From an uncultured Caulobacterales bacterium (GTDB lineage: Bacteria > Pseudomonadota > Alphaproteobacteria > Caulobacterales > Parvularculaceae): DNA of 64,000 nucleotides. The stretch is taken from positions 84,745-148,744 of the forward strand of contig CAZAOB010000001.1 in NCBI GenBank assembly GCA_964486635.1, given 5' to 3'. Of this stretch, positions 45,728 through 59,751 are shown piece by piece; position 1 is the stretch's first letter; the number at the start of each line of letters is the position of its first letter. Both the position numbers and the translations under genes were made by a program. The notes beneath the pieces were generated by a model that ran no database searches, was not told where the DNA came from, and saw only the letters and a program-made list of their open reading frames with translations.

Positions 45728-48700
45728 CTAAAACAAAAAGTCATCCTGATGGAGGTCGGCGACGAGGACGCCATTGAGGGTGATGGAGCCCGCGCCAAGG
45801 ATGATGGTGGTGTCGGTTCCGTCGTCGGATGCGTTGGCGAGAATGTCGGCGAACTCATCGAACGCCGCGCCGAAGCCCGAGATGAAGATGACATCGTCGC
45901 TGGCTTCGCCCGCATTGAAGCCGTTGATGAGGTCGTCGCCGTCTCCCATGGCGTATTCAAAACGGTCATCGCCACCGCCGCCATTGATTTCATCATCGCC
46001 GGTTCCGCCGATCAGCGTGTCATTCCCGACATCGCCCAAGAGCACATCATTGTCTGCGCCGCCGTTGAGCAGATCATCGCCGCCGCCGCCATTCAGCGTG
46101 TCGTTTCCGGCGTCGCCATAAAGCTCGTCATTGTCCACATTGCCGAAGAGCTGATCGGCGCCGTCACCGCCACTCAACGTGTCGAGGCCGGCCCCGCCAA
46201 ACAGCGTGTCGTTTCCGCCTTCGCCGTTGAGCAAGTCGTTGCCATTAGACCCGGCGAGAAGATCGTCGCCGGTCCCGCCATTCAGCGTGTCGGTTCCATT
46301 GCCGCCATAGAGTTCGTCATTTTCGGTTCCGCCGAACAGCAGATCATCGCCATCGCCGCCGAGCACGGTGTCATTGCCGGCGTCGCCATGGACCGTGTCA
46401 TCGCCGCGTGTGCCGGCGACGAGATCATTTCCGTCATCGCCGTGGACGAGATCGTCGTCATTGCCGCCCACAGCGGTGTCGCTTCCCGCGCCGCCATAGA
46501 CTTCGTCAAAGCCGCGCGTGCCGGAGATGTTGTCATTGCCGTCGCCGCCCAGCACAGTGTCGTTCCCGTCGCCGCCCAGCACAGTGTCGTCGCTGATCCC
46601 GCCATCGACAAAATCATTGCCGGCATTGCCGGTCAGCAGATCCGAGCCCGGGCCGCCATCCAGAGTGTCGGCGCCGGAACCGCCGTAAAGCTCATCAGTG
46701 CCGTTGCCGCCTTCGAGATAGTCATCGCCCTCGCCGCCAGCGAGCGTGTCGGAACCAAACCCCGCCGAGAGATGATCGCCTTCCGCGCCGCCGAAAAGCT
46801 GGTCATTACCATCACCGCCATAAAGAAGATCCTGGCCAGCGCCGCCGGCAAGCGTATCGAAACCGGCGTTGCCGCGAATCTCGTTGTTGGCGGAGTTGCC
46901 GGCGAGAAAGTCATTTCCCGATCCGGCGTCCATGTTTTCGATGACCGTATCCGGCGCAATGAACAACGTCCGGTGGTTGACGCCGATCAACGATCCGTCC
47001 GTCAGTGAGTAATAGGAAATGTCCGTACCCACATCGATCCACGACCCGGGCGTCAGATTGATGGAAAGGTCGGATGTTCCCGGCAGGTTCAACGTATCGT
47101 TTCCGCCATAGTCCCAAATCGTGGCGAAGATACGGTCAGTATTTTGCAGCGCATAAATCGTGTCGCCGCCGAGCGTCGTCGTGTTGACGCCATAAGCGGC
47201 CTGCAGCGCCTGAATGTCGAGCCACATCAATGTCTGAGGGAACAAATCAGGCAGCGCATCGACGCCGAGCGCGCGAAACCCGGACCGGCTCATGATCGAA
47301 TATTCGCCGCCTAGGAGTTTGAAATCGACGACGGACGCGAGGGCGGAGAAATCGGGATGCAACAGGCCGAGATTATGCGTGAACTCGTGAAGCGTGCGGT
47401 TATAGAGAAAATTATCGGTCGAAAGGCCCGCAGCGCCGAAATTGCGGAAGATTTCCGCATTCTCTTCGCCCTTGTCGACATTGACCCAGGTTTCGCCGGC
47501 CATCGTCCAGCCGGGAAAGCCCGACCAGCCAGTGACCAGCGCGCCGGACGCGCTGCCGAGTTCAATATCGGTATCGCCTATGCGGAACGTACCGGCCTCA
47601 ACGCCCGCATCGTCGACTTGGACAAACTGGATATTCGTCAACAGTTCGATATGGGCGATATTCGTCAGAAAGGCGTCGAGGACCACTCCGCTCGCGGGCA
47701 CGTATCCGATATTCCATTCCGACGCGACTGCGTTTTGAACGCCGGGCGACGTCGCCGCAACTGCACCAGGAATGCTGTAGGTGAGCGTCGTGACGCCGTC
47801 GCCGTCACGGTCGAGAAAGATGGGTTCCGGCGCGGTTGGGTCGGTGTATGTGAAGAAAATATCGATTTCAGCGTTGCCAGTAAGCGTGAAGATTTCGCTG
47901 GCACGGATTGAATAGGCGCCGCGATCATGGGCGGACACCGATACGCTGTAGTCGCCGACGGTTTCGCCGGCGCCCGCGCCGATGGTGATGTAATAGATTC
48001 CCGTCGAATCCGGTGTGAATGTAATCTGGTGCGCGTCGAATGGTCCGCCCGCGGTGAACGTTCCTTCGGCGGCGGCTGTTTCGATCAACATCGGATCGAC
48101 CGGATCACCGGAAGCGTCCACGAAGGTTACGATTTCAATATCGTCGATTTCACCGAAAAATCCGATGTCATTACCGTAAACCGTAATGTCGACGGCAACG
48201 CCTGCTTCGAGCGAGAGCGCGATTGTATCGGTGTCGCCATTGCTGCCGATATGACCGTCCTGCGTCTCCCAGATCGCGATCGGGTTGCTGGGATCGAGGT
48301 CGTTGGAAAAATCGTCCGCTGGCGCTGTAAACTCTTCGACACTTAGCGCCCAGCTTCCGCCGAGATCGCCGGAAAAGTTCGGACTGACAACGACAAAATA
48401 GGTCCCGTTTGCGGCAGGGGTGAACAGCAGCATGGCGGCGAGGCCGGCGGCGCTGTCATCGTCGGAAAATCCGAGGGAGGCGCCCGAAGCATTCAGAATG
48501 TCGCCAATGCGCGTATCGAAATCTGACGTCGTGCCGCTGTTTTCCGGCGTCAGCGTAATCCGGTAGGTTTGTCCGGCCAGGAGATCGACGCCAATCGCAT
48601 CGCGGTCGAAAAATTCACTCCCGGGAGAGGTAAAGCCAATATAAGTGCCGCCCACAGCTACGCGCTCGGGCGAAGTGTGATCGCCTGGGATCGTCGTCAT
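45728..48700 (-). CDS. Secreted RTX-repeat metzincin (serralysin-like zinc protease) with two N-terminal PPC-like beta-sandwich domains; probable type-I secretion substrate
   Basis: HEFTHNLGLLH (HExxHxxGxxH) encoded at 47357-47389 with a downstream SIMS Met-turn. A long block of GGxGxDxUx nonapeptides follows. Acidic/hydrophobic C-terminus ending ..DLHQDDFLF, with no N-terminal signal peptide. Confidence 0.9.
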   Translation of the reverse strand: MTTIPGDHTSPERVAVGGTYIGFTSPGSEFFDRDAIGVDLLAGQTYRITLTPENSGTTSDFDTRIGDILNASGASLGFSDDDSAAGLAAMLLFTPAANGTYFVVVSPNFSGDLGGSWALSVEEFTAPADDFSNDLDPSNPIAIWETQDGHIGSNGDTDTIALSLEAGVAVDITVYGNDIGFFGEIDDIEIVTFVDASGDPVDPMLIETAAAEGTFTAGGPFDAHQITFTPDSTGIYYITIGAGAGETVGDYSVSVSAHDRGAYSIRASEIFTLTGNAEIDIFFTYTDPTAPEPIFLDRDGDGVTTLTYSIPGAVAATSPGVQNAVASEWNIGYVPASGVVLDAFLTNIAHIELLTNIQFVQVDDAGVEAGTFRIGDTDIELGSASGALVTGWSGFPGWTMAGETWVNVDKGEENAEIFRNFGAAGLSTDNFLYNRTLHEFTHNLGLLHPDFSALASVVDFKLLGGEYSIMSRSGFRALGVDALPDLFPQTLMWLDIQALQAAYGVNTTTLGGDTIYALQNTDRIFATIWDYGGNDTLNLPGTSDLSINLTPGSWIDVGTDISYYSLTDGSLIGVNHRTLFIAPDTVIENMDAGSGNDFLAGNSANNEIRGNAGFDTLAGGAGQDLLYGGDGNDQLFGGAEGDHLSAGFGSDTLAGGEGDDYLEGGNGTDELYGGSGADTLDGGPGSDLLTGNAGNDFVDGGISDDTVLGGDGNDTVLGGDGNDNISGTRGFDEVYGGAGSDTAVGGNDDDLVHGDDGNDLVAGTRGDDTVHGDAGNDTVLGGDGDDLLFGGTENDELYGGNGTDTLNGGTGDDLLAGSNGNDLLNGEGGNDTLFGGAGLDTLSGGDGADQLFGNVDNDELYGDAGNDTLNGGGGDDLLNGGADNDVLLGDVGNDTLIGGTGDDEINGGGGDDRFEYAMGDGDDLINGFNAGEASDDVIFISGFGAAFDEFADILANASDDGTDTTIILGAGSITLNGVLVADLHQDDFLF
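45965..46930 (-). repeat. Coding tandem repeats: RTX (hemolysin-type Ca-binding) nonapeptide array, roughly three dozen units
   Basis: Protein segment ..GNAGFDTLAGGAGQDLLYGGDGNDQLFGG...GGGGDDRFEY. The repeat periodicity also produces a long spurious ORF on the opposite strand. Confidence 0.9.
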
Positions 48701-49276
48701 TGTCTAGAGCCCCTCAGTCGTGCCGCGGAGCGGCGGTTTCAAAAACGGGCCCCCGCCTATCTTCAAAACGCTGCAACCCTGATGGAAATCCCGCATCTGT
48801 TCAAGGTGTTCTTTGCCAAACTGACACTACATCATGCAAATCGGACTGAACGCGGTAGCTTCTGTGCGGCGCAACATAGCTACTTTCCGTTCAATTCAGC
48901 CGGAGCAAATGCGGACGCGATTAAATCGCCTCACTTCTGCCCGAGAAAAGCGGACTCCTGCGGAAAACCAGCGGGGCATAGGCGTGAAACTCGCTGATAG
49001 CACAGTGGCGCAAGTTGGAGATTGAACTCTGGGATCTATACTCATTCGCAATCCTCCAAGCATCGAACTCAGCCTGGTTAGTTTGTGGCCGGAACTCTCA
49101 GCACCAATAGTTCTTCGATTCCCGACTCGAGCCGAGCCGACACTCATGGTTGCAAATTGCTGAACTTCACCTCTCATCCAGAAAAATCAATCGTTTAACC
49201 CACTTACGCCGGTTAGCATCTTTGGATATGGTGACCGAAATTTGTGCGAGCCTCTCGCATACCGGGGAAACTGAAG

Positions 49277-50950
49277 ATGACAAACATTTTTATCAGCTAT
49301 TCACGCAATGATCGTCAGATCGTGCAGCAGATGGCAACAGCCCTGCAACAAGACGGCTTCAACGTTTGGTGGGACAGGGAAATTCCGCCGGGCAGCACAT
49401 TTGCAGACGTAATTGATAAGCGACTGAATGAGGCACACTGCGTTCTGGTGATCTGGTCTTCGTCTTCAGTGAAGTCGAACTGGGTGCAAGAAGAGGCAGA
49501 TGACGGACTGCAAAGTGGCCGCTTGATTCCGGTCATGATCGAAGAGATTGATCTGCCGCGTGGCTTCAAGCGCCTGCAAACTGCTAACCTGATCAACTGG
49601 CGAGGTGATCGCGCCGCACCAGAGTGGGTCAGCGTTGTCTCCGAAGTGCGCCGCCTTGTCGCGCAGGGCCAGGCTGCATCCGCACCGAAAGCGGCGGCTC
49701 CAAGGATTGCAACGCCAAAGCCCGCTGCACCAAAACAGTCAGCGCCGAAACCTGTTGCGCAGAAAGCATTGCCTTCACATGCGCCGAAGCAACCCAACGC
49801 GGCATCCAGCAGGCGCACAACGCCTCAGCCCGCCGCGAGGCAAGCGCCTGTCCCAACGCCGAAGAAGTCTGGCGGAGCCGGAGCGATTTTGGGACTGGTT
49901 GCTGTCTTCGTCGTCGCACTTGGCGCTGGCGGCTATTTTTTTCTAAAGTCTAAATCCGGCGAAGTGGTCCAAGCAGAAGCCGAAAGCCATCCCATTGCAT
50001 CAAGCGAGTTGCAAACCGCTGAAGCGACAGTTCCCGCGCCGGATGTTGGCGCAGCTCTGAATGAGGGTGTGGCGGAGCCGGCGGATGGAAACCTCACAGT
50101 ACTTGCCGCAGCTGACACTGAGTCGATGGCCGACCCGGTAGACGAGGTCCCAGTCGAAACCACTCCCGAGGTGACGGATGTGGAGCCACACAAGCCTCAG
50201 CCAGGTGAGATAATTCAAGATTGCGGATCTTGTCCGGAACTCGTGGTGATTGCTGCAGGCGCTTCGGTCATGGGCGCCCCCGATGGAGAGCGCAGCAGCG
50301 AAGCGGTCGAGACACCACAGATCCAAGTGCGCTTGGACTATTCATTTGCAATCGGGCGCTTTGAAGTAACACATGAACAGTGGGCGGCTTGCCTCGCCGA
50401 TGGCGGCTGCGGAGCATACGAACCAAGTGATAATGGCTGGGGTCGAGGCAACCGACCTGTGATCAATGTGTCTTACGACAATGCACTAGAGTACGTGGCG
50501 TGGCTGTCTGCAAAAACTGGCGCAAAATATCGTTTGCCCAGCGAGTCGGAGTGGGAGTTCGCCGCTCGTTCCGGAACTACCACGCCATTTTCGACTGGCG
50601 ACACTATTTCCACGCGCCAAGCAAACTTTAACGGCCAATATCCCTATGCTGGCGGAGCGCAGGAGCGATCTGCAGGAAAAACACTTGCGGTTGGAAGTTT
50701 TTCGCCAAATGCGTTCGGCATTTTTGACACGCAAGGCAACGTGTGGGAGTGGGTTAGCGATTGCTGGAAGCCTTCGCACCGCGATGCCGACCCATCAGGC
50801 ACGCCAGTTGGCGGCGTATGCTCACAGAGGGTATTGAAAGGCGGTGCCTGGAACGGCGGCGCGTGGCGTGCCCGCTCAGCACACAGAAAGCCCGCCAAGT
50901 CTTCGACCGGCGACTATGATGCTGGTTTTCGCGTGGTCCGTGAATTGTAA
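49277..50950 (+). CDS. Single-pass membrane protein: N-terminal TIR domain, Pro/Ala/Lys-rich linker, TM helix, C-terminal FGE-sulfatase-like (FGS/SUMF1-type) domain
   Basis: TIR_2-type start MTNIFISYSRNDRQ.., ..VLVIWSSSSVKSNWVQEE.. (S.W...E motif). TM GAGAILGLVAVFVVALGAGGYFFL (about 49871-49945). FGE fold motifs ..RFEVTHEQW.., ..RLPSESEWEFAAR.., ..GNVWEWVSDCW.., ..VLKGGAW.., ..GFRVVR... Start set to ATG 49277 behind GGGGAAA. Confidence 0.85.
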   Translation: MTNIFISYSRNDRQIVQQMATALQQDGFNVWWDREIPPGSTFADVIDKRLNEAHCVLVIWSSSSVKSNWVQEEADDGLQSGRLIPVMIEEIDLPRGFKRLQTANLINWRGDRAAPEWVSVVSEVRRLVAQGQAASAPKAAAPRIATPKPAAPKQSAPKPVAQKALPSHAPKQPNAASSRRTTPQPAARQAPVPTPKKSGGAGAILGLVAVFVVALGAGGYFFLKSKSGEVVQAEAESHPIASSELQTAEATVPAPDVGAALNEGVAEPADGNLTVLAAADTESMADPVDEVPVETTPEVTDVEPHKPQPGEIIQDCGSCPELVVIAAGASVMGAPDGERSSEAVETPQIQVRLDYSFAIGRFEVTHEQWAACLADGGCGAYEPSDNGWGRGNRPVINVSYDNALEYVAWLSAKTGAKYRLPSESEWEFAARSGTTTPFSTGDTISTRQANFNGQYPYAGGAQERSAGKTLAVGSFSPNAFGIFDTQGNVWEWVSDCWKPSHRDADPSGTPVGGVCSQRVLKGGAWNGGAWRARSAHRKPAKSSTGDYDAGFRVVREL

Positions 50951-51005: not shown

Positions 51006-53492
51006 TCAGCTCGTACCAGCAGAGTGTGTGGGTGAAATGATCACAGGCGGGCTCATCACCGGGCGACGACGGAAGACGCTCGGTGATGCAAATTCCCCAG
51101 GCACGCGCCCTTGACGACGCCAACTAACGATATCGCCAGTGCCGCCAGTGCCGAGACTTTCATTGCCGTCCCAAACTGCAATCAGCACGTCCGCTCGTTC
51201 GGCAATGTAGGCGCCAGCCAGCGCGTATTGCCTTTCTCTTGCGGCGGGATACGTCCCGTCTCCATAAGTGAGACTTACATCCGTCAGATCGCCAAACTTT
51301 AAGGGGAGTTCAATATAGCGTTCGCTCAGTGCTACGAGCCTGCGCAGCTTTTCTGCAGGACCCTCTCCTCTACTCGTTGCTGATCGCGACCGCTCATAAT
51401 CCTGACTGTAGGCGTCATATGGCATCGGCAACGGCACCCAGTAGGGGATATTCAACTCCAAAGCGATCTCGGCGGCAATGGTGTCAGTGCCTTCGGCGAG
51501 CGCTGTCAATATGACTGGCGCGCGATCGGGATTAGCGGCAATTTGTCTACCAATCTCCTCCCTCAGCGATTTGCGAATGTGTTCCTGATCTAGATCGCGA
51601 TTGCTACCGGGGCGATGGCCAACGACGCCGATAACGAATTCACGTTTTATCTCTAAACCAACGCAGGCCACAGTTTCCTGAAGGCGCGATGCAAGACCCT
51701 TATCGAATGTTTTCTCGTTGTCTGACAGCGCGGACCAAGGACGCAGCAAATCATGGCGGCGGGCTGCATCAACCCGCTTTTTTCCATACGCCCAACCACT
51801 GAGAAATCGCTCATTCAGCCAGCGGTGATGTTCCATCTTGGCGAGCAATTCATGCTCATCATCTGTAAGATTGAGCCGAGCGTCCGCAGATTTTTTTTCC
51901 GTGATCCGAAAGCGCATCGCTGTCGCTTTGGCCCAAATGTGATCGGCCGCCTGCCGACTCGATTCCCGGAACTCTTGCGGTAGTCTTTCCCACTCACGCT
52001 CCGCCCTCAGCGTTACCGAGGCTTCAGCTGCGGCTGTCCCACGCGAGCCGCTTCGATCGCCGACGTAGCTAAAATGCAGATGCTTGGCAATTTCCTCACG
52101 CATTGAGTCGATCAACGTAGGAACAAAAAAATCATCCTGATCGCCGGTGAGAATGTCTTCGACCGCGCCAAATGCAAAAATCCCGTCCGGAATTTCATTT
52201 TCGACCTCCAGACTGTGCCCGGAGTGCTGGTCATGAACGCGGCGATCAACATTTGAACGCAATAGCTCACCGATGCCGCGCGTGTTCGCCAAGTGGACAA
52301 GGATCGGAGCATTGACTCTCCTCACCCCCCCTTCACCCGCATCGGGGCGAGTCAACAGCAGCCGCCGAAGTGACAAGGCGACATTGACCGAAACTTCAGG
52401 CTGTTCATAGCAAACCACGTGCAGTGTAGATTGTTCCGGCAGCCGAGAATAATCGTTCGAAGAAATCCCATTCGGGTGAATTGTGAGCAGACGAACATCG
52501 AGGTTCGCCATCTTGCCGATCTCTGGGATCAAGGCTCGAATTTCATGCCGGCAATCATCCGGCTGCGCCGTAAACAAAGTGATGTTGACGCGGTTTTCAC
52601 TTGCACTCGTGCTCTGACGCAAGGTTTCGACGATCACTTGCGTAGACAAGGCGTTGTGTCCGTAAATGCACAAATGCAGAGCTGATTGGCCCTGCGCATC
52701 CGCATAGATCTCGGGTGGATGCGCCCGAATGACCCGCCGCGCTGCAATTTCCTCGATACTGAAGAACCGCGGACGCGCCGATTCAGACATTCCGGCAAAC
52801 TTGAAGTATTCCCCAAGGCGAACACCAAAGCCCGCCTCTTTCAGGCGCACCCAAAGGTCGCGATCCGATTTTCTTGAGGCTGAACCGATGCGTGCTTTGC
52901 CACGAATTTCAGCATTTGCCGAAAGGACAAATTGAAGACTGTCCGTTGCTTCTTGCAGAAATGATATCGCTATCCGTGAACGATGAATTCGCGCACGCGC
53001 GAGCACTGAGCGCGAGCCCGGATCACCCTTGATTAAGATTGCGCCGCCGCGCCGACACTTCGCGGCCAACGCATTCGGCGGGTTCGGATCAATGATCACG
53101 ACGCCTGTTCGCTTTTTCACCTGGTTGAAAGACGCGAGAAGGAACAGCGTTTCATCGTTTAGCCCCGCCAGAACCGCATGGCCCGAAATGCGGGACAGTC
53201 GCAGCGTTTGCCAAACATGGAGGAACAGCTGCGCCGTGAACAACTCGACAATGCCAACTATCGTGAATACAGGCGCCACGTAGGCCTGCATTTTTACAAA
53301 GGTGTTCACGTCCTGCTGAAAGGCCCAGTCGCCACTAAGCACAAACAGCTGAAGGATCTTATAGGCATCATAATAAACAGACCCAGGGCCGCCACCATAG
53401 ACCTGCAGCGACACGACACCCGCGTAAACAAAGATCGCGAAGAGGATTGCTAGACCGACAAGCCTCTTGGTTTGACCGTTTAGGTCCGACAT
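51006..53492 (-). CDS. 2-TM protein with two degenerate TrkA-N/RCK-like domains, a RyR-type repeat module and a C-terminal SLOG (Smf/DprA-LOG)-like domain
   Basis: TM1 LVGLAILFAIFVYAGVVSL and TM2 YVAPVFTIVGIVELFTAQLFL. TrkA-N-like pattern GHAVLAGLNDET..VVIIDPN..ILIKGDPGS..L..A.I, then a second copy (LHLCIYGHNALS..). RyR-like ..LLAKMEHHRWLNERFLSGWAYG...RHDLLRPWSALSDNEK... DprA/LOG-like VIGVVGHR...ILTALAEGTDTIAAEIALE...VLIAVWDG..LGTGGTGDIV. The ORF itself is solid; the domain names are motif-level calls. Confidence 0.75.
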   Translation of the reverse strand: MSDLNGQTKRLVGLAILFAIFVYAGVVSLQVYGGGPGSVYYDAYKILQLFVLSGDWAFQQDVNTFVKMQAYVAPVFTIVGIVELFTAQLFLHVWQTLRLSRISGHAVLAGLNDETLFLLASFNQVKKRTGVVIIDPNPPNALAAKCRRGGAILIKGDPGSRSVLARARIHRSRIAISFLQEATDSLQFVLSANAEIRGKARIGSASRKSDRDLWVRLKEAGFGVRLGEYFKFAGMSESARPRFFSIEEIAARRVIRAHPPEIYADAQGQSALHLCIYGHNALSTQVIVETLRQSTSASENRVNITLFTAQPDDCRHEIRALIPEIGKMANLDVRLLTIHPNGISSNDYSRLPEQSTLHVVCYEQPEVSVNVALSLRRLLLTRPDAGEGGVRRVNAPILVHLANTRGIGELLRSNVDRRVHDQHSGHSLEVENEIPDGIFAFGAVEDILTGDQDDFFVPTLIDSMREEIAKHLHFSYVGDRSGSRGTAAAEASVTLRAEREWERLPQEFRESSRQAADHIWAKATAMRFRITEKKSADARLNLTDDEHELLAKMEHHRWLNERFLSGWAYGKKRVDAARRHDLLRPWSALSDNEKTFDKGLASRLQETVACVGLEIKREFVIGVVGHRPGSNRDLDQEHIRKSLREEIGRQIAANPDRAPVILTALAEGTDTIAAEIALELNIPYWVPLPMPYDAYSQDYERSRSATSRGEGPAEKLRRLVALSERYIELPLKFGDLTDVSLTYGDGTYPAARERQYALAGAYIAERADVLIAVWDGNESLGTGGTGDIVSWRRQGRVPGEFASPSVFRRRPVMSPPVIISPTHSAGTS

Positions 53493-53689
53493 AAATGTCC
53501 TTTGTGTTGCAACTTCGTCAATCTAGAGCCCTTATACTGTGACACTTACTCCGCGAGACTTGGACTGCTGGCACACGTCAGCCAATCTTCAATCGCTACA
53601 ATGTAGGGTACTGAGTAGAACCCGCAGTTACATCAAACCCGCTTCACGTTCTTCGGTCTCGAGTCTTCTTTTGAACATTGTTCGCGGCG

Positions 53690-54296
53690 ACGGTAAAATG
53701 GCTGTATCTAAGGCGGCGGTCAATTATTGTGGGTGACAATCGCAGAATTAAACTCGTCATAGGGCGTACCAATGTGACAGGCCGCAATTGCTTAAAATGT
53801 GACCGTACGCGACCGATCGGAGCTAAATCCGCTCCCCCTATCGTATTGCGGAGACCAGCATTGGTTAGGTTGGCGAGAAGATTCCACCCACGAACGGCTC
53901 CGTTGATTGATTGACCATACGAATGCAGCAACTTGTTCCCTGGCAATTATTCAACAGCGTCTCGCCGCGATCTGCTTGGCTGTACCTTCAAAGATACAAT
54001 CGGGACCGACCCGGGAAACCTCCACTTATGGAGTTGATAGCTGGTTCGCACTAGGACGACGAAGCGCCGAGCAGACTCCAACGCCAAAGCCGAACGGCAC
54101 TAGCGATCGGCTCGATGTGGCTGACGTTTGGATGACGGTGCGACGCGAGGTTCTCAACGCCGAGTGGTTCGCCACTATCGATCAGGCGAAAACGGTCATC
54201 GGAAGATGGCTCAGGCAGTACAAAACCGTGCGCCCGCATCAGGCCCTTGGCATGAGGCCTCCGGCGCCGGAAACTCTATCAGAAGTTGGCACATAG
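53690..54296 (+). pseudogene. Decayed, 5'-truncated IS3-family (rve/DDE integrase) transposase remnant
   Basis: The last about 65 codons read ..VRREVLNAEWFATIDQAKTVIGRWLRQYKTVRPHQALGMRPPAPETL, the canonical C-terminus of IS3-type OrfB. Upstream frames keep only faint traces (..KWLYL.., ..IQSGP(T)RE.. for SDNGPEF, ..PKPNGTSDR.. for P..NG..ER) interrupted by stops and frameshifts. The 5' limit is approximate. Confidence 0.6.
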
Positions 54297-54337
54297 ATTT
54301 GGGGCTGGACAGGCGAGCAGAACAAAAATGCCGGCTA

Positions 54338-54499
54338 TCACTTCGGCAAATTCTGCTCAAGGTCGTCATCGAGCAAAATGCGCTCGGCCGCGCCATCCAT
54401 ATCGTCATATTGACCGGACTTCACCGACCAGATGAAAACCGCGAGGCCAGCAGCACCCATGATCAATGCAATCGGGATGAGATAGATAAGCGCTGTCAT
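54338..54499 (-). CDS. ccoS: cbb3 oxidase maturation protein CcoS/FixS (53 aa; below the ORF-track cutoff)
   Basis: Own translation: MTALIYLIPIALIMGAAGLAVFIWSVKSGQYDDMDGAAERILLDDDLEQNLPK. This is the typical CcoS TM helix plus the SGQ(Y/F)DD motif. Its ATG overlaps the ccoI stop (ATGA). Confidence 0.8.
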   Translation of the reverse strand: MTALIYLIPIALIMGAAGLAVFIWSVKSGQYDDMDGAAERILLDDDLEQNLPK

Positions 54500-56736
54500 G
54501 CGGTTTCCTTTGCGTTGCGGATTCGCAATGCATTCAGCGTTACGACGACGGATGAACCCGACATGGCAAGCGCGGCGATAAGGGGCGTGACGAACCCAAA
54601 CACGGCAAGCGGTATGGCGCAGACATTATAGAGCGCTGCAAAAGCAAAATTCTCAAGCACGCGTCTGCGCGCCTGTACTGAAATGTCATACGCAGTCACA
54701 ACGGAACGTAGGCTGTCGCCCTGAAGCACGAAATCGGCCGCAGCCTGGCTTGCATCAGCAGCCGTTCCTGGCGAGAGCGAAGCATGGGCGGCCGAAAGGG
54801 CCGGCGCGTCGTTCAGTCCATCGCCGACCATCGCCACCTTTGCGCCTTTTGCGCTGAGTTCAGACAGGCGTGAGATTTTGTCGGCCGGCGTCATCTCCGC
54901 CCGCCATAGGTTTAGGCCAACAGATCTGGCGATCCGTTCCGCGGGCGCGCGGCGGTCACCGGTCAACATTTCTGACTCAATATGTCTGTCGCGAAGATCG
55001 GCGATCGATTGCGCCGCATCGTTCCGAAGCCGGTCCTCAAAAGTGAACCGAACCGGCTCAGCGTCGCCAAGCCTGAGCCACGCTTCCGACAACGCGCTCT
55101 GACCGGCACTCCCGGCGCCGACCCAGTCCGCGCGCCCGAACCGCGCATTGCTTTCGCCGATCACGCCTTCCACACCAAAGCCGGGGATGTCGCGCGCTTC
55201 GTCGGCGAGCGCGCCGGGACCGGCAGCTTCGACGATAGCGCGCGCGAGTGGATGACGGCTCACGCGCGCAAGACTTGCAGCCTGCATCAAAACCGCTTCC
55301 GAGATCTCTTCTCGATTGGCGAGGCTCATCCGGCCATGAGTCAGCGTGCCGGTTTTGTCGAACACGAACGTATCGACTTCCGCGAGGCGCTCCAAAGCGT
55401 CGCCGGATTTGACCAGCACGCCGGATTTGAACAAGCGCCCGGTGGCCACAACCTGCACCGCTGGCGCGGCGAGCCCGAGCGCACAGGGGCAAGTTATAAT
55501 CAGCACCGCGACAGCATTCATGATAGCGACGCGCAATCCCGCATCGCCGATCACCAACCATCCGAGGAATGTCGCGAGCGCCAGCGAGTGCACGACCGGC
55601 ACATAAAGCGCCGCAGCACGATCTGCGAGGCGCACATATTTACTTTTGCCCTGTTCACCGGCTTCAATAAGCCGCGTCAAATCGGCAAGCAGGGAGTCTT
55701 CGACCCGCGCAGTTGCGCGCATCACCAGTTTCGAGGAGAGGTTGAGCACGCCCGCATATAGCTTATCGCCTGACTTCATCGAGGCTGGCGCGCTTTCGCC
55801 GGTCACAAGCGATACATCGACCTCAGACGCGCCGGTTTCGATTACCCCGTTCACCGGCGCCCGGTCGCCAGGCGACAATAGAATTCGTTCTCCAACCGCG
55901 ATATCGCGCGCGGAAACCGCCTCGAGCCTTCCGTCATTGCGAAATCGCGTGGCGGCGGTCGCTTGCATGGCGATCAAGCCTCGCGCTGCCTCTCTTGCTC
56001 GCGCGCGCAGGCGGTGATCGAGCCACCGGCCGATGAGCAAGAAGAACAAAAGCATCACCGCAGCGTCGAAATAGGCGTCTTCACCGTGATTGAGCGTTTC
56101 AAAAATACTCACCGCGAGCGACAACAGCACGGCGAGCGAGATCGGCACGTCCATATTGGCGCGCCCCTTTTTCAGTGCGGCCAATGCCGAATTGAAAAAC
56201 GGCCTGCCCGCGAAGGCAGCAGCCGGGATTGCGATCATCCCGGAAATCCAGTGCATCATCATGCGCGTCGCCGGGCCCATCTCACCGCCAGCCCCGGCCC
56301 AGACAGCAACGGACAAAAGCATGATGTTCGCCGCCGCAAAGCCCGCGACGGCGAGGCAGCGCAACAGAAAACGTCCTTCATCATCGCTTTGCGCTATGGC
56401 GGCTTTCGGGTCGAATGGCGTCGCACGATAGCCGAGATCGGAGATTTTTTGCGTGATGTCCCGTGGGCGCAAACCAACATCGCGCCAGGTGACGGCGAGC
56501 TTTCCGGTCGAAAGATTGAGCCGCGCGGCATCGATCCCGGGCAGTGTCTTCAGCCCGCCCTCGATCTTTGCAATACAGCCGCCGCATTTGGCGCCGTAGA
56601 CAGACAACTCCAACTGGCGCGTCCCGTCACGTAACAGCCTGACAAAAGGCGCGGGATCGATCACGCTGGCGTCAAGCGCAGGCTCCATGCCGCTCGGGCA
56701 TCCTGGCGCCGCATCGATGACGCTTGTCGCGCTCAT
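54496..56736 (-). CDS. ccoI: Copper-translocating P1B-type ATPase CcoI/FixI
   Basis: N-terminal HMA domain (GAKCGGCIAKIE), CPC in TM6 (ITCPCALGLAAP), DKTGTLT phosphorylation site, MVGDGLNDAP hinge. Confidence 0.95.
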   Translation of the reverse strand: MSATSVIDAAPGCPSGMEPALDASVIDPAPFVRLLRDGTRQLELSVYGAKCGGCIAKIEGGLKTLPGIDAARLNLSTGKLAVTWRDVGLRPRDITQKISDLGYRATPFDPKAAIAQSDDEGRFLLRCLAVAGFAAANIMLLSVAVWAGAGGEMGPATRMMMHWISGMIAIPAAAFAGRPFFNSALAALKKGRANMDVPISLAVLLSLAVSIFETLNHGEDAYFDAAVMLLFFLLIGRWLDHRLRARAREAARGLIAMQATAATRFRNDGRLEAVSARDIAVGERILLSPGDRAPVNGVIETGASEVDVSLVTGESAPASMKSGDKLYAGVLNLSSKLVMRATARVEDSLLADLTRLIEAGEQGKSKYVRLADRAAALYVPVVHSLALATFLGWLVIGDAGLRVAIMNAVAVLIITCPCALGLAAPAVQVVATGRLFKSGVLVKSGDALERLAEVDTFVFDKTGTLTHGRMSLANREEISEAVLMQAASLARVSRHPLARAIVEAAGPGALADEARDIPGFGVEGVIGESNARFGRADWVGAGSAGQSALSEAWLRLGDAEPVRFTFEDRLRNDAAQSIADLRDRHIESEMLTGDRRAPAERIARSVGLNLWRAEMTPADKISRLSELSAKGAKVAMVGDGLNDAPALSAAHASLSPGTAADASQAAADFVLQGDSLRSVVTAYDISVQARRRVLENFAFAALYNVCAIPLAVFGFVTPLIAALAMSGSSVVVTLNALRIRNAKETA

Positions 56737-57224
56737 GGCGCTGTAATCCTTGCATCGACATCCAACGCTTCGCCGCTCGATCCTTCAATGCGCAAGGCCA
56801 AATCCCAGACGCCCGGCGCGAAAGCGCCAACCTCTGCCGCATAAACGCCATCCCCCTGCGCGATAAAGCTCAGCGGCTGATCAGCAGCTGCCGTCGCCGG
56901 TCTTTTCAGGACGCCAGCGACCGAAAGCCCTGAAAGCGCTGTTTCGTCCTTTGATAGTCGAAGCGCGATTATTCCCGTCTCTGCATCGCGCTCCACCTCA
57001 ACGATTTCCACATTCCAGCCGAGTTGCGACTGCGCCGCGCGTTGAGCAATCGTGTCATTATAATGAAGACCTTGTAGGTAGGACTTCTCTTCGGACACGC
57101 CAGGGAATGTCCGCACTGCCGCGCGGATAAAAATCACATTGGCGAATATCATGACGCCGAAAAATGCGATCACCATGAGGAGCACGTGACGACCCGTAAG
57201 CATTCCCTTTTCATTCATCATCAC
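56733..57224 (-). CDS. ccoH: CcoH/FixH cbb3 assembly protein
   Basis: ..GRHVLLMVIAFFGVMIFANVIFI.. TM followed by a FixH-type periplasmic domain. 4-nt overlaps with both neighbours. Confidence 0.85.
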   Translation of the reverse strand: MMMNEKGMLTGRHVLLMVIAFFGVMIFANVIFIRAAVRTFPGVSEEKSYLQGLHYNDTIAQRAAQSQLGWNVEIVEVERDAETGIIALRLSKDETALSGLSVAGVLKRPATAAADQPLSFIAQGDGVYAAEVGAFAPGVWDLALRIEGSSGEALDVDARITAP

Positions 57225-58708
57225 CTCCCTGTCAGAAATGCCGTTGGGCTAACGGCTTCTTCACCGGTGGCGGGATCAATCACCGTGATCGACAATTGCG
57301 CCGCGTCAGCCGAAAACGCCGATTGTGGCGCTGTTACAAAAATTCGCGCTGTTCGTACCGCGTCGCCGGGAGCCGCGATCATGACATCGTCGTTCTCAAC
57401 CTTCTCGCCCACCGCGCTGACGACATATCCATCCGGGACGTTGATGCGTATGATCAAATCTCGGGTGTAGTTGGCGCGATTAACGACCTTGACGTTATAC
57501 GCATTGCGCACCGACCCGTCGGACAAAAGCACAAAGGGCGGCGTCCGATCGCGGAGGACATTGACCAACATGGAATCGCGCGTCGACAGGCCGTAAGCCA
57601 TTAAGGCGCACACAAAGGCCAACACGCCAGCGTACAAAATGGTGCGTGGCCGCACCAATCGGATGCGGGTCTTTTCACCTCGCTGACGGCGCGCAATATT
57701 GGCGTCAGTATCATAGTCGATTAGCCCTTTCGGACGGCCGACTTTCGTCATGATGTCGTTGCAGGCGTCAATGCACAGCGCGCAGTTGATGCATTCGAGT
57801 TGCGCCCCGTCGCGAATATCAATCCCCATTGGGCAAGAAACGACGCAGGCGCGACAGGAAACGCAATCGCCCCGCCCTACCCATGTATCGCCTTTCTTGT
57901 GCGGACCGCGCGGTTCGCCGCGATCTACTTTGTAGGTGACCTGCAGCGTTTCCTCATCCGTGAGCGCCGCCTGTATACGCGGCCATGGACACATATAGGT
58001 GCAGACTTGCTCGCGCATGGAGCCAGCGAAAACGTATGTGGTCAGCGTCAGAAGTGCGAAAAAGAAATAGGCTGTGAAAGGCGCCTCGCCGCGTAGAAAA
58101 TCGCGAGCGATGCTGGGCGCGTCATGGAAATAGAGAATCCAGGCGCCGCCCGTCGCCATGCCGATCACGATCCAGACAATATGTTTTACGACACGCTTCC
58201 GGATCTTGTCGAAAGTCCAAGGCGCTTTCGCCAGCTTCATCCGCGCATTTCGATCGCCCTCAATGAAGCGCTCCACCCAGACATAGAGGTCTGTCCAAAC
58301 AGTTTGCGGACAGGAATAGCCGCACCAGACGCGGCCAAATAAAGCCGTCGCCAAAAACAGCGCGAGCGCTGCGATCACCAAAAGGCCGGTGAGAAAATAA
58401 AGTTGATCCGGCCATATTTCGATGAAGAAGAAATAAAATCTGCGGCCAGAGAAATCGACCAGCACCGCCTGATCCGGCTCTGCAGGACCGCGCGGCCAGC
58501 GTATCCACGGCGTGATGTAATAGACGCCAAGGGTCAGGGCCATGATAATCCACTTCAGGCTTCGGAAGGTTCCCTTGACCCGCTTCGGATAGATCGGATC
58601 ACGCGCCTTATAGAGCGTGCGCGTCGCGGCAGCGTTGACCGCTTCGACTTCATGACGCACCACGCCGCCGCTGAAATCAGGCGACGGCGCCGGTTCGGAT
58701 ACAGACAT
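57221..58708 (-). CDS. ccoG: CcoG/FixG (RdxB) polyferredoxin-type cbb3 accessory protein
   Basis: Membrane N-terminus with ..CGYSCPQTVWTD.., ..CTYMCPWPR.., and two 4Fe-4S motifs CVSCRACVVSCP / CINCALCIDACN. Start set to ATG 58708 (MSVSEP..). Confidence 0.9.
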   Translation of the reverse strand: MSVSEPAPSPDFSGGVVRHEVEAVNAAATRTLYKARDPIYPKRVKGTFRSLKWIIMALTLGVYYITPWIRWPRGPAEPDQAVLVDFSGRRFYFFFIEIWPDQLYFLTGLLVIAALALFLATALFGRVWCGYSCPQTVWTDLYVWVERFIEGDRNARMKLAKAPWTFDKIRKRVVKHIVWIVIGMATGGAWILYFHDAPSIARDFLRGEAPFTAYFFFALLTLTTYVFAGSMREQVCTYMCPWPRIQAALTDEETLQVTYKVDRGEPRGPHKKGDTWVGRGDCVSCRACVVSCPMGIDIRDGAQLECINCALCIDACNDIMTKVGRPKGLIDYDTDANIARRQRGEKTRIRLVRPRTILYAGVLAFVCALMAYGLSTRDSMLVNVLRDRTPPFVLLSDGSVRNAYNVKVVNRANYTRDLIIRINVPDGYVVSAVGEKVENDDVMIAAPGDAVRTARIFVTAPQSAFSADAAQLSITVIDPATGEEAVSPTAFLTGR

Positions 58709-58727
58709 AGTTTTCGCCTTCAGACGG

Positions 58728-59603
58728 CTACTCGCCGCCGCCAAGTGAATGGACATAGACCGCGAGTGCGAGAATTTCTTCTTCGTTTAAGCGCCCTTCC
58801 CAGGCGGGCATGACGCCGTTCCGTCCGTTCCACAGTGTTTCACGGATTGTCGCCGGATCACCGCCATAAAGCCATATGGGGTCGGTCAGGTTCGGCGCCC
58901 CCTGCGACTGATCGCCCATGCCCGCCGCACCGTGGCATTGCGCGCACTGCGCTTGGAATACTGGCGCCGCACGATCCGCCGCGGACGCGTCATGATCTTG
59001 TCCCGACAGGCCGCGAACATATTGCACCAGATCATCGACCGTTTCACGCGGCAGGATGCCGCCCGATCCGTAAGCCTGCATCACGGAAAGATGCGCGTCA
59101 GGATGACCTGACCGGATGCCATAGCGAACGGTTTGGCGGATTTCGTCAAGCGAACCGCCCCACAGCCAAGAGTCATCGTTCAGATTCGGATAGCCCTTAA
59201 AGCCTTGCCCGCCCGCGCCGTGACAGGTGGCGCAATTATCGCCGAACAATGACTCCCCGGCGGCCATTGCGAAAGCGTGCAGGCTGGGATCGTTCTCAAT
59301 GGCCTCCATATCCGGCGCTGTCAGCAGGCGACGGGTTGCGTCGGCGCGCGCCTGATCCAGTTGCGCAATAGCCTCAGTGACATTCTCGCGCTCGGAATGA
59401 TTGCGCGTGCCTTGGAGATAACCAGTTATTCCCGGCCATGACGGCATCACCACCCAATAGCCAATCGACCAGATAATGCTGATATACCAGACAATCAGCC
59501 ACCAGCGCGGCAGAGGATTGTTCAGCTCCTTTATGCCGTCCCAGGCATGTCCTGTCGTTTCGATGCCTGAATGCTCATCGATTTCCTTATCTGACATCGC
59601 CAT
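58728..59603 (-). CDS. ccoP: cbb3 cytochrome c oxidase subunit III (dihaem c) CcoP
   Basis: ..TGHAWDGIKELNNPLPRWW.., two CxxCH motifs (CATCHG, CAQCHG). Start set to ATG 59603 (MAMSDKE..). Confidence 0.9.
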   Translation of the reverse strand: MAMSDKEIDEHSGIETTGHAWDGIKELNNPLPRWWLIVWYISIIWSIGYWVVMPSWPGITGYLQGTRNHSERENVTEAIAQLDQARADATRRLLTAPDMEAIENDPSLHAFAMAAGESLFGDNCATCHGAGGQGFKGYPNLNDDSWLWGGSLDEIRQTVRYGIRSGHPDAHLSVMQAYGSGGILPRETVDDLVQYVRGLSGQDHDASAADRAAPVFQAQCAQCHGAAGMGDQSQGAPNLTDPIWLYGGDPATIRETLWNGRNGVMPAWEGRLNEEEILALAVYVHSLGGGE

Positions 59604-59751
59604 GTTCCTCGTCCTGGAGCGGAATTCGCCGTGCGTGCTCGAAGCGCTGGCGGTTTCCCGGCGCAAGCGCGTAAATCAGCACGAGCACGAACGCGATCAC
59701 AAAGAGAATGAGCCCGCCCGTTTGCGCAAAAGAAGAAAGCGTTTCGTACAT
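59587..59751 (-). CDS. ccoQ: cbb3 oxidase small subunit CcoQ (54 aa; below the ORF-track cutoff)
   Basis: Own translation: MYETLSSFAQTGGLILFVIAFVLVLIYALAPGNRQRFEHARRIPLQDEEHGDVR. Single TM, located between ccoO and ccoP, with its 3' end overlapping the ccoP start as usual. Confidence 0.7.
   Translation of the reverse strand: MYETLSSFAQTGGLILFVIAFVLVLIYALAPGNRQRFEHARRIPLQDEEHGDVR

Follow-up and report, generated by a model that had tools for sequence, protein, structure and literature searches.

GsuK and MthK (PDB 4gx0/4gx1 and 1lnq/3rbz) are K+ channels of the type that combines two transmembrane helices (2TM) with RCK domains, whose cytoplasmic rings gate them, and Thoeris systems are two-gene modules of a TIR protein (ThsB) and an effector that has a domain for binding the signal. 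RyDEP, a phage protein with a ryanodine receptor (RyR) domain, cleaves 2'/3' cyclic ADP-ribose (2'/3'cADPR) via H75 and D117, with W78 and H100 also in its pocket, while other phage RyDEP homologs bind at nanomolar affinity and do not cleave (PMC13232231). A second such protein, RyR Tad, binds 3'cADPR, 2'cADPR and cADPR through H129/W132, H154 and K170/D171 (2026 preprint). Both preprints describe homology to Repeat12 of the animal RyRs, an adenine-nucleotide binder. TRPM2 is an animal cation channel gated by ADP-ribose (ADPR) via its N-terminal MHR1/2 region, which is SLOG-type. We analyzed a gene in which related parts occur together. It occupies positions 51006..53492 (minus strand) of a 64,000-nucleotide stretch of DNA from an uncultured Caulobacterales bacterium of the Parvularculaceae (contig CAZAOB010000001.1), referred to here as the window. 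As seen from the open reading frame (ORF) listing and the translation, it encodes an 828-aa membrane protein consisting of a 2TM pore-like unit, two RCK domains (RCK1 and RCK2), RyR repeats and a SLOG domain. The adjacent gene encodes a TIR protein.

We propose that the 828-aa protein is a cation channel or a depolarizing effector under the control of a product that the partner TIR makes from NAD, and we put the probability of this reading at about one half. The protein is probably an inner-membrane, ligand-gated channel, tetrameric, that derives from GsuK/MthK-type 2TM/RCK K+ channels and has lost their selectivity filter; its oligomeric state and its conduction are what we infer. The pair would be placed within Thoeris-like TIR signaling. 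What appears to be new is a channel scaffold, predicted to be under TIR control, that bears both a SLOG domain and a RyR repeat with cADPR-binding-type residues. The domain known from the phage RyR proteins, with its ligand residues, here forms part of a host channel polypeptide, beside a TIR gene. More tentatively, and with less confidence than in the reading above, we suggest a bacterial channel gated by a TIR-made, ADPR-derived messenger. Such a channel would join in a single polypeptide the RyR Repeat12 and TRPM2 SLOG-type modules, the two ligand modules found on ADPR/cADPR-linked channels of animal cells. Its driver would be a TIR receptor that spans the membrane and has its sensor outside the cytoplasm, arranged much as Toll-like receptors are. 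If true, cADPR-type gating via RyR repeats would have a precedent in prokaryotes and a model that is tractable. The Thoeris repertoire would gain an RCK-channel effector and a TIR sensor that crosses the membrane, and there would be an example of a K+-channel scaffold converted into a nucleotide-gated depolarizing device. The question can be put to the test in a bacterial protein of small size, and one family member comes from the cultured strain Parvularcula mediterranea ZS-1/3. No bacterial TrkA_N-RyR channel and no such TIR pairing is described in the literature as available to us in part, and an unlabelled entry among the 29 predicted types of Yirmiya et al. (bioRxiv 10.64898/2025.12.03.692087) could correspond to it.

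Domains of the channel-like protein

The ORF runs from ATG to stop and fills the coordinates 51006..53492 exactly, with an AAGGA motif 8 nt 5' of the ATG. An earlier note, made from the letters of the window, had placed an 828-aa protein here; the placement was borne out, and the strand, which that note did not give, was found to be the minus strand. Its five domain calls from the raw translation were all upheld by the profile or fold tests described below. The identical protein is present on several metagenomic and NCBI contigs, and a word-indexed search gave 11 full-length homologs (38-100% identity). PADLOC has no model for the protein. The AlphaFold2 (AF2) model of the whole chain had a pLDDT of 78.9 and a pTM of 0.77, and its best PDB fold matches by Foldseek were tandem-RCK proteins (GsuK at E 3e-9, then TrkA, Slo1/Slo2 and CASTOR).

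The pore-like unit comprises residues 1-104 (53181..53492, minus strand). Hydropathy, AF2 and HMMER together gave TM1 (residues ~11-32), a pore-helix-like helix (39-48, with D42, Y44 and, just beyond it, F50), Gly54-Asp55-Trp56 at the filter position, and TM2 (64-100, with A73-P74). Two hydrophobic segments, centered near residues 21 and 82, were observed in all 11 close homologs. In the AF2 model the region folds as a helix (4-32), a short helix (39-48), a loop at Gly54 and a further helix (64-101). When residues 1-268 of 20 diverse members were made into a profile, it matched GsuK (E 7e-15) and MthK (E ~1e-9) in the PDB, and the HMMER alignments begin in TM1 and cross the pore helix, the filter and TM2. 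The 2TM call of the earlier note is therefore supported by hydropathy, by the modeled helices and by these alignments through the transmembrane region. The GsuK alignment places 'daYrvlqLFal--eGdw' on 'GIYWTITVMTTLGFGDI', which sets G54-D55 against the final Gly and the Asp of TxGxGD.

TM1, pore helix, loop, TM2 and RCK follow one another as in GsuK and MthK, and the similarity is seen both by sequence profile and by fold. Unlike these channels, the window protein has no TxGYGD (it has VLSGDW, which is two residues shorter), and it carries ~375 extra C-terminal residues (RyR and SLOG) and a TIR gene partner. The filter reads F-V-L-S-G-D-W, a two-residue deletion in comparison to TTLGFGD of GsuK, and lacks the T-x-G-[YF]-G-D signature; the variants LNGS, LNGD, IEGE and LEGD occur among the family. 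Among the 20 diverse members, Y44, F50 and P74 were invariant and G54 and A73 nearly so. A transmembrane-only profile aligned weakly with a canonical pore (E 0.024), although its global score exceeded those of all 30 shuffles. A PDB search with the 11-sequence transmembrane-only profile gave no match, and the wider 20-sequence profile including RCK1 was needed. Since the T-x-G-[YF]-G-D filter is absent, we have not filed the protein as a K+ channel; given the loss of this K+ selectivity signature and the loop shortened by two residues, its conduction and selectivity are putative. In our reading, the unit is a P-loop pore that has diverged strongly and no longer carries the K+ signature.

RCK1, a TrkA_N-like domain, was assigned to residues 105-268 (52689..53180, minus strand) from Pfam TrkA_N and from PDB profile matches. 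The Pfam match had an E-value of 1.6e-5 on the whole protein and 1.6e-6 on the excised region, and the profile of residues 1-268 matched GsuK, MthK, TrkA and KefC in the PDB. Its motif is MthK-like (H-x-V-x-x-G-L-x-x-E-[ST]) rather than GxGxxG. RCK2, a second Rossmann-like gating-ring domain, spans residues 269-452 (52137..52688, minus strand), as judged from hhalign and Foldseek. It had no Pfam match of its own. Its profile aligned to that of RCK1 with a probability of 93.8% (E 1.8e-7), compared with 0.2% for a control alignment to the SLOG profile. These results agree with the two TrkA-N-like domains that had been called from the translation. The Foldseek alignments to the tandem-RCK proteins TrkA, GsuK and CASTOR extended over 380-470 columns, and GsuK also has two RCK domains per subunit. 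The two domains fit a cytoplasmic gating ring, the assembly of which is predicted.

The tandem RyR repeat (Repeat12-like) occupies residues 455-612 (51657..52130, minus strand). Pfam PF02026 matched in two stretches (E 9e-13; 48.7 bits against a gathering cut-off of 27.4), and the PDB RyR Repeat12 chimera 6uhi matched at E 2e-16, so the RyR-type repeat of the earlier note also stands. Repeat 2 carries H555, W558, H580 and D597, which fall on the equivalent residues of 6uhi in an ungapped alignment. Their spacing (+3, +25, +42) is identical to that of H75/W78/H100/D117 in RyDEP and of H129/W132/H154/D171 in RyR Tad, which are likewise PF02026 proteins. The four residues were invariant in the window clade (13 distinct loci, channel identity 36-100%). 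Repeat 1, with H473, Y476, W501, R509, D517 and H518, is divergent, and the second His and the Asp of the canonical pocket are absent from it. Unlike the phage proteins, which are free sponges or glycosidases, the window RyR domain is encoded by a host and forms part of a channel; its ligand binding is predicted. In the animal RyRs, too, the tandem repeat lies within a cation-channel polypeptide. A host channel with an RyR domain is described neither in the two preprints nor in the text and tables of the Thoeris survey. The RyR repeat is itself likely to be a nucleotide sensor. The earlier note had seen a nucleotide sensor in the SLOG domain; a sensor module is indeed supported there, but the RyR repeat had been left out of that role.

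The SLOG domain, a YpsA/DprA-like Rossmannoid, was assigned from AF2 and Foldseek to residues 613-828 (51009..51656, minus strand), with a Pro-rich tail from residue ~800. The AF2 model of residues 612-828 had a pLDDT of 87. Its top Foldseek matches all belonged to the SLOG superfamily (YpsA 2nx2 at E 6e-6, ShosA, TM1055, the molybdenum cofactor carrier protein and DprA, with TM-scores of 0.4-0.59, and the N-terminus of TRPM2 at E 4e-3). The alignment contains the SLOG motifs GVVGHR, LTxLAxGxD, VPLPxP and AVWDG..GGTGD. The Gly-rich loop after strand 1 (GVVGHR), the G-x-D after strand 2 (LAxGxD) and the GGT before the last helix (GGTGD) were conserved in 26 of 28 diverse members. The C-terminal 210 residues had no Pfam, NCBIfam or PADLOC match even at E 10, and no sequence-profile match in the PDB. 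The SLOG call of the earlier note is thus upheld by the fold matches of the model, and by no sequence library; the domain appears to represent a SLOG subfamily without a curated sequence model.

The nearest sequence relatives of the domain form the N-terminus of 550-630-aa proteins that have four C-terminal transmembrane helices and weak SLATT_3/DUF4231 matches. 'SLOG and 4TM' is named as a predicted Thoeris effector class by Yirmiya et al. (bioRxiv 10.64898/2025.12.03.692087), and these predicted effectors share the SLOG subfamily of the window protein. TRPM2 resembles the window protein in having a SLOG fold fused to a cation-channel polypeptide; it differs in its six-helix TRP pore and N-terminal SLOG domain, and the likeness is one of fold alone. 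As functional analogies, TRPM2, in which ADPR gates a cation channel through a SLOG-type domain, and the ryanodine receptor, with Repeat12 on a cation channel, come closest.

The degenerate, shortened filter and the weak stand-alone similarity of the pore would also fit a protein that is not a channel. The helices would then be an anchor, and the cytoplasmic part an enzyme or a sink for TIR products that tunes or ends signaling, either by cleavage of cADPR isomers in the RyR domain or by nucleotide processing in the SLOG domain. H555 and D597 match the catalytic dyad H75/D117 of RyDEP. LOG-type SLOG domains are hydrolases, an activity that also favors an enzyme. We consider this explanation unlikely, since Y44, F50, G54 and A73-P74 are conserved down to ~20% identity over residues 1-268, which is beyond the needs of an anchor, and two RCK domains have no known role besides transport gating. 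Moreover, phage RyR proteins with the same residues mostly bind and do not cleave, and a metagenomic relative with the same downstream architecture (L056, described below) has a bona fide Ion_trans_2 pore.

The TIR partner and the proposed signaling

The partner gene (49277..50950, plus strand) encodes a 557-aa protein composed of a TIR domain, a linker, a transmembrane helix and an FGE-sulfatase (formylglycine-generating-enzyme-like) domain (Pfam TIR_2 E 3e-26, FGE-sulfatase E 5e-47). It is convergent with the channel gene across a 55-nt gap, and an alternative GTG start is present at 49244. The TIR domain (49286..49651, plus strand) contains Glu73 in the motif WVxxEADDG, and this Glu was invariant in all eight partners that were aligned. 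A single transmembrane helix, with Lys residues before it, was predicted by hydropathy (49883..49942, plus strand). The FGE-sulfatase domain, assigned with Pfam (50231..50941, plus strand), occupies a position in which the putative sensor is swappable. The linker between the TIR and FGE-sulfatase domains is rich in Pro, Ala and Lys.

When the partners were compared, a hydrophobic helix with Lys/Arg before it was observed between the TIR and the variable domain in 8/8 proteins. FGE and TPR partners have one transmembrane helix, and WD40 partners have three at this position and two to three at the C-terminus. Since the helix follows Lys/Arg and separates the TIR from the variable domain, a cytoplasmic TIR and an extracytoplasmic sensor are predicted. 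This suggests that the partner is a TIR receptor that crosses the membrane in the manner of Toll-like receptors.

The pairing is conserved in the window clade. A TIR_2 gene lay within 3 kb of the channel gene in 11 of the 13 loci, either convergent or in tandem, and the flanking genes differed from locus to locus. The domain after the partner TIR was FGE-sulfatase in four loci, WD40 in five and TPR in two. The identity of the TIR domains tracked that of the channels (75/73%, 41-45% and 27%), from which we conclude that TIR domain and channel have been co-inherited while the C-terminal domain was exchanged. At two loci an additional ORF without a Pfam match was found between the TIR-TPR gene and the channel gene (L008, 5870-6322, 150 aa; L023, 8451-9494, 347 aa).

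The layout, as we propose it, would be a pore, two RCK domains per subunit as a gating ring below it, and then the tandem RyR and SLOG modules for nucleotide binding. The channel would work as a pair with the adjacent membrane TIR protein, whose TIR domain would be cytoplasmic and whose swappable sensor (here FGE-sulfatase) would lie outside. The sensor domain would detect an envelope or periplasmic cue, possibly phage-related, and the TIR domain would turn NAD+ into an ADPR-derived signal. This signal would be bound by the RyR and/or the SLOG pocket, the gating ring would open the pore, and the resulting cation flux would lead to depolarization and to growth arrest or abortive infection. What is shown is the domain chain, the homology to GsuK/MthK, the conservation of the ligand residues, and the linkage to TIR with swapping of the sensor. 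Which way the signal runs, what it is, which pocket receives it and the immune role are inferred, and the immune role is proposed by analogy only. The earlier note had likened the layout to a ligand-gated membrane effector. Four observations support this, namely the matches to GsuK and MthK, the presence of two RCK domains in tandem, a TIR partner that is conserved, and the RyR ligand residues; conduction and selectivity are predictions.

The reverse direction was also considered, with sensing or regulation by the channel protein and the TIR as an effector that depletes NAD+, or with linear ADPR from the TIR NADase gating the channel, as in TRPM2. TIR_2 includes NAD+-depleting effectors, and the partner's PADLOC matches included the SAVED-TIR and Argonaute-associated TIR families; the N-terminal SLOG-like domain of TRPM2 is among the fold matches. 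Against this, the variable sensor-type domains are on the partner and not on the channel, and SLOG and RyR domains are small-molecule receivers in every characterized case. We regard reversed signaling as very improbable.

Our preferred reading, a channel that receives the TIR product, resembles Thoeris in being a two-gene module of a TIR with a catalytic Glu and a SLOG-bearing membrane effector, whose binding is predicted. Unlike in Thoeris, the output is an RCK channel and not SIR2 or SLATT helices, and an RyR repeat is added. The TIR protein is itself anchored in the membrane and carries a large domain that can be swapped, the two genes frequently converge instead of forming an operon, the surroundings show no defense island, and the system is known here from sequence. 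No SIR2 match was found in the window protein with Pfam, NCBIfam or PADLOC, which sets it apart from the type I effector ThsA (SIR2-SLOG). As a concept, type X Thoeris (Bacillus sp. BH32) is similar, as a TIR signal is coupled there to an ion-channel effector. The type X effector ThsK (L029:3298-3987) has 229 aa and no Pfam domain, and the type X TIR belongs to the ThsB_TIR/DUF1863 cluster and not to TIR_2. We rejected the identification of the window protein as ThsK, since no similarity was detectable (hhalign probability 0.15%). When plasmids were searched with the type X TIR, all loci returned were of type II (Macro), and the real ThsK locus was located via the protein database.

Relatives, a split operon and the points against

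With the SLOG domain as query, an exhaustive profile search gave 6909 proteins at E <=1e-3. The complete five-part architecture was present in 34 of the best 150 representatives (clusters at 50% identity). Judged from these sequences, the architecture is not a chance fusion, as at least 34 cluster representatives share all of its parts.

A metagenomic locus (L056, 1413-9142) has four consecutive genes on the same strand, encoding a TIR-WD40 protein, an RyR protein, a channel and a SLOG+4TM protein. The RyR protein is free (132 aa, PF02026 E 1e-35) and has an intact H/W/H/D pocket. The channel (602 aa) has an Ion_trans_2 pore with the filter TTIGYGD, a TrkA_N domain and a C-terminal RyR domain with the pocket H/W/N/N; its RCK1 aligned to that of the window family with an hhalign probability of 99.5%. 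The SLOG+4TM protein (639 aa) belongs to the same SLOG subfamily as the window protein. These split genes indicate that the modules fused in the window protein are functionally linked elsewhere, and that the pore descends from that of a genuine K+ channel. The free host-encoded RyR protein might be a signal buffer or degrader.

More distant relatives form a second clade with the same five domains (27-31% identity, ~770 aa, ~18 loci). Their SLOG motifs are intact, and their RyR pocket is incomplete (K/Q at 555, N at 580, E/N at 597). Conversely, one protein with a TIR-WD40 neighbor (P0007; L011, 3263-5713) has an intact RyR pocket and decayed SLOG motifs (GVVGSL for GVVGHR, ECDAE for AVWDG and PGSIQD for GGTGD). 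In actinomycetes, TM-TrkA_N-RyR proteins that lack SLOG keep H/W/H/D and have no TIR neighbor. These mismatches between pocket and TIR indicate that neither pocket alone explains the TIR linkage. The rule that an intact RyR pocket marks TIR linkage was rejected on account of the actinomycete relatives, and a universal TIR linkage of the architecture was rejected by the metagenome census. One of the actinomycete genes lies directly upstream of a Hen1-Pnkp RNA-repair pair (L027, 5995-11710). A gene of the same SLOG subfamily was also found beside three consecutive TIR-domain matches (L071, 2011-6441; L072, 2013-5387), which resembles the multi-TIR layout of type III Thoeris.

Several observations weigh against a TIR-controlled channel with an immune role. 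The first are the deleted filter and the weak transmembrane-only profile described above. Two window-clade loci (L020 and L021) had no TIR within 6 kb. The distant clade is mostly TIR-less, with a TIR nearby (within 1.4 kb) in only three of ~18 loci (L034, L040 and L049), so TIR linkage was borne out in the window clade and not in most of this clade of the same architecture. Instead, the distant loci (e.g. L044, 3410-9223; L039; L045) show a conserved synteny of FAD-linked oxidase, channel, DbpA-type DEAD-box helicase and thioredoxin, which suggests that this branch is vertically inherited and possibly has a housekeeping role. Intact RyR pockets occur without a TIR, so neither pocket is uniquely tied to TIR. 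The SLOG+4TM systems that Yirmiya et al. (bioRxiv 10.64898/2025.12.03.692087) tested in E. coli gave no defense. Finally, no recognizable defense genes were found in the ~10 neighborhoods inspected, which is a small sample, and the flanks consisted of housekeeping genes.

Several of these points would fit a physiological, non-immune pair, in which the TIR receptor responds to an environmental or envelope cue and the channel tunes cation/K+ flux or the membrane potential via an NAD-derived messenger or adenine nucleotides, without killing. The inspected neighborhoods lack a defense-island context, and the distant clade stands in a stable housekeeping synteny without TIR. Repeat12 of RyR1 has been described as sensing ADP/ATP, homeostasis is the usual role of RCK channels, and the predicted periplasmic sensors are compatible with environmental sensing. 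However, the unit moves between unrelated flanks with swaps of the sensor, which is typical of immune receptors; it forms a lower-GC island beside a transposase fragment; and all bacterial TIR-plus-SLOG pairings characterized so far are anti-phage. We consider a non-immune pair somewhat doubtful, though a better candidate than a protein that is not a channel.

Genomic surroundings

On one side of the two-gene island lies a gene for a 990-aa RTX protein (45728-48700, minus strand) with 10 matches to haemolysin-type calcium-binding repeats, and on the other a fixI-fixH-fixG-ccoP cluster for cbb3 oxidase maturation (54496-59666, minus strand). Neither flank is defense-related. The island itself has a GC content of 0.52-0.55, compared with 0.58-0.63 in the flanks. 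The gap of ~850 nt between the channel gene and fixS/fixI (53493-54340) contains a 129-aa ORF (53907-54296, plus strand) that is a fragment of an rve_3 integrase core. The low GC content and this fragment point to insertion of the island by a mobile element.

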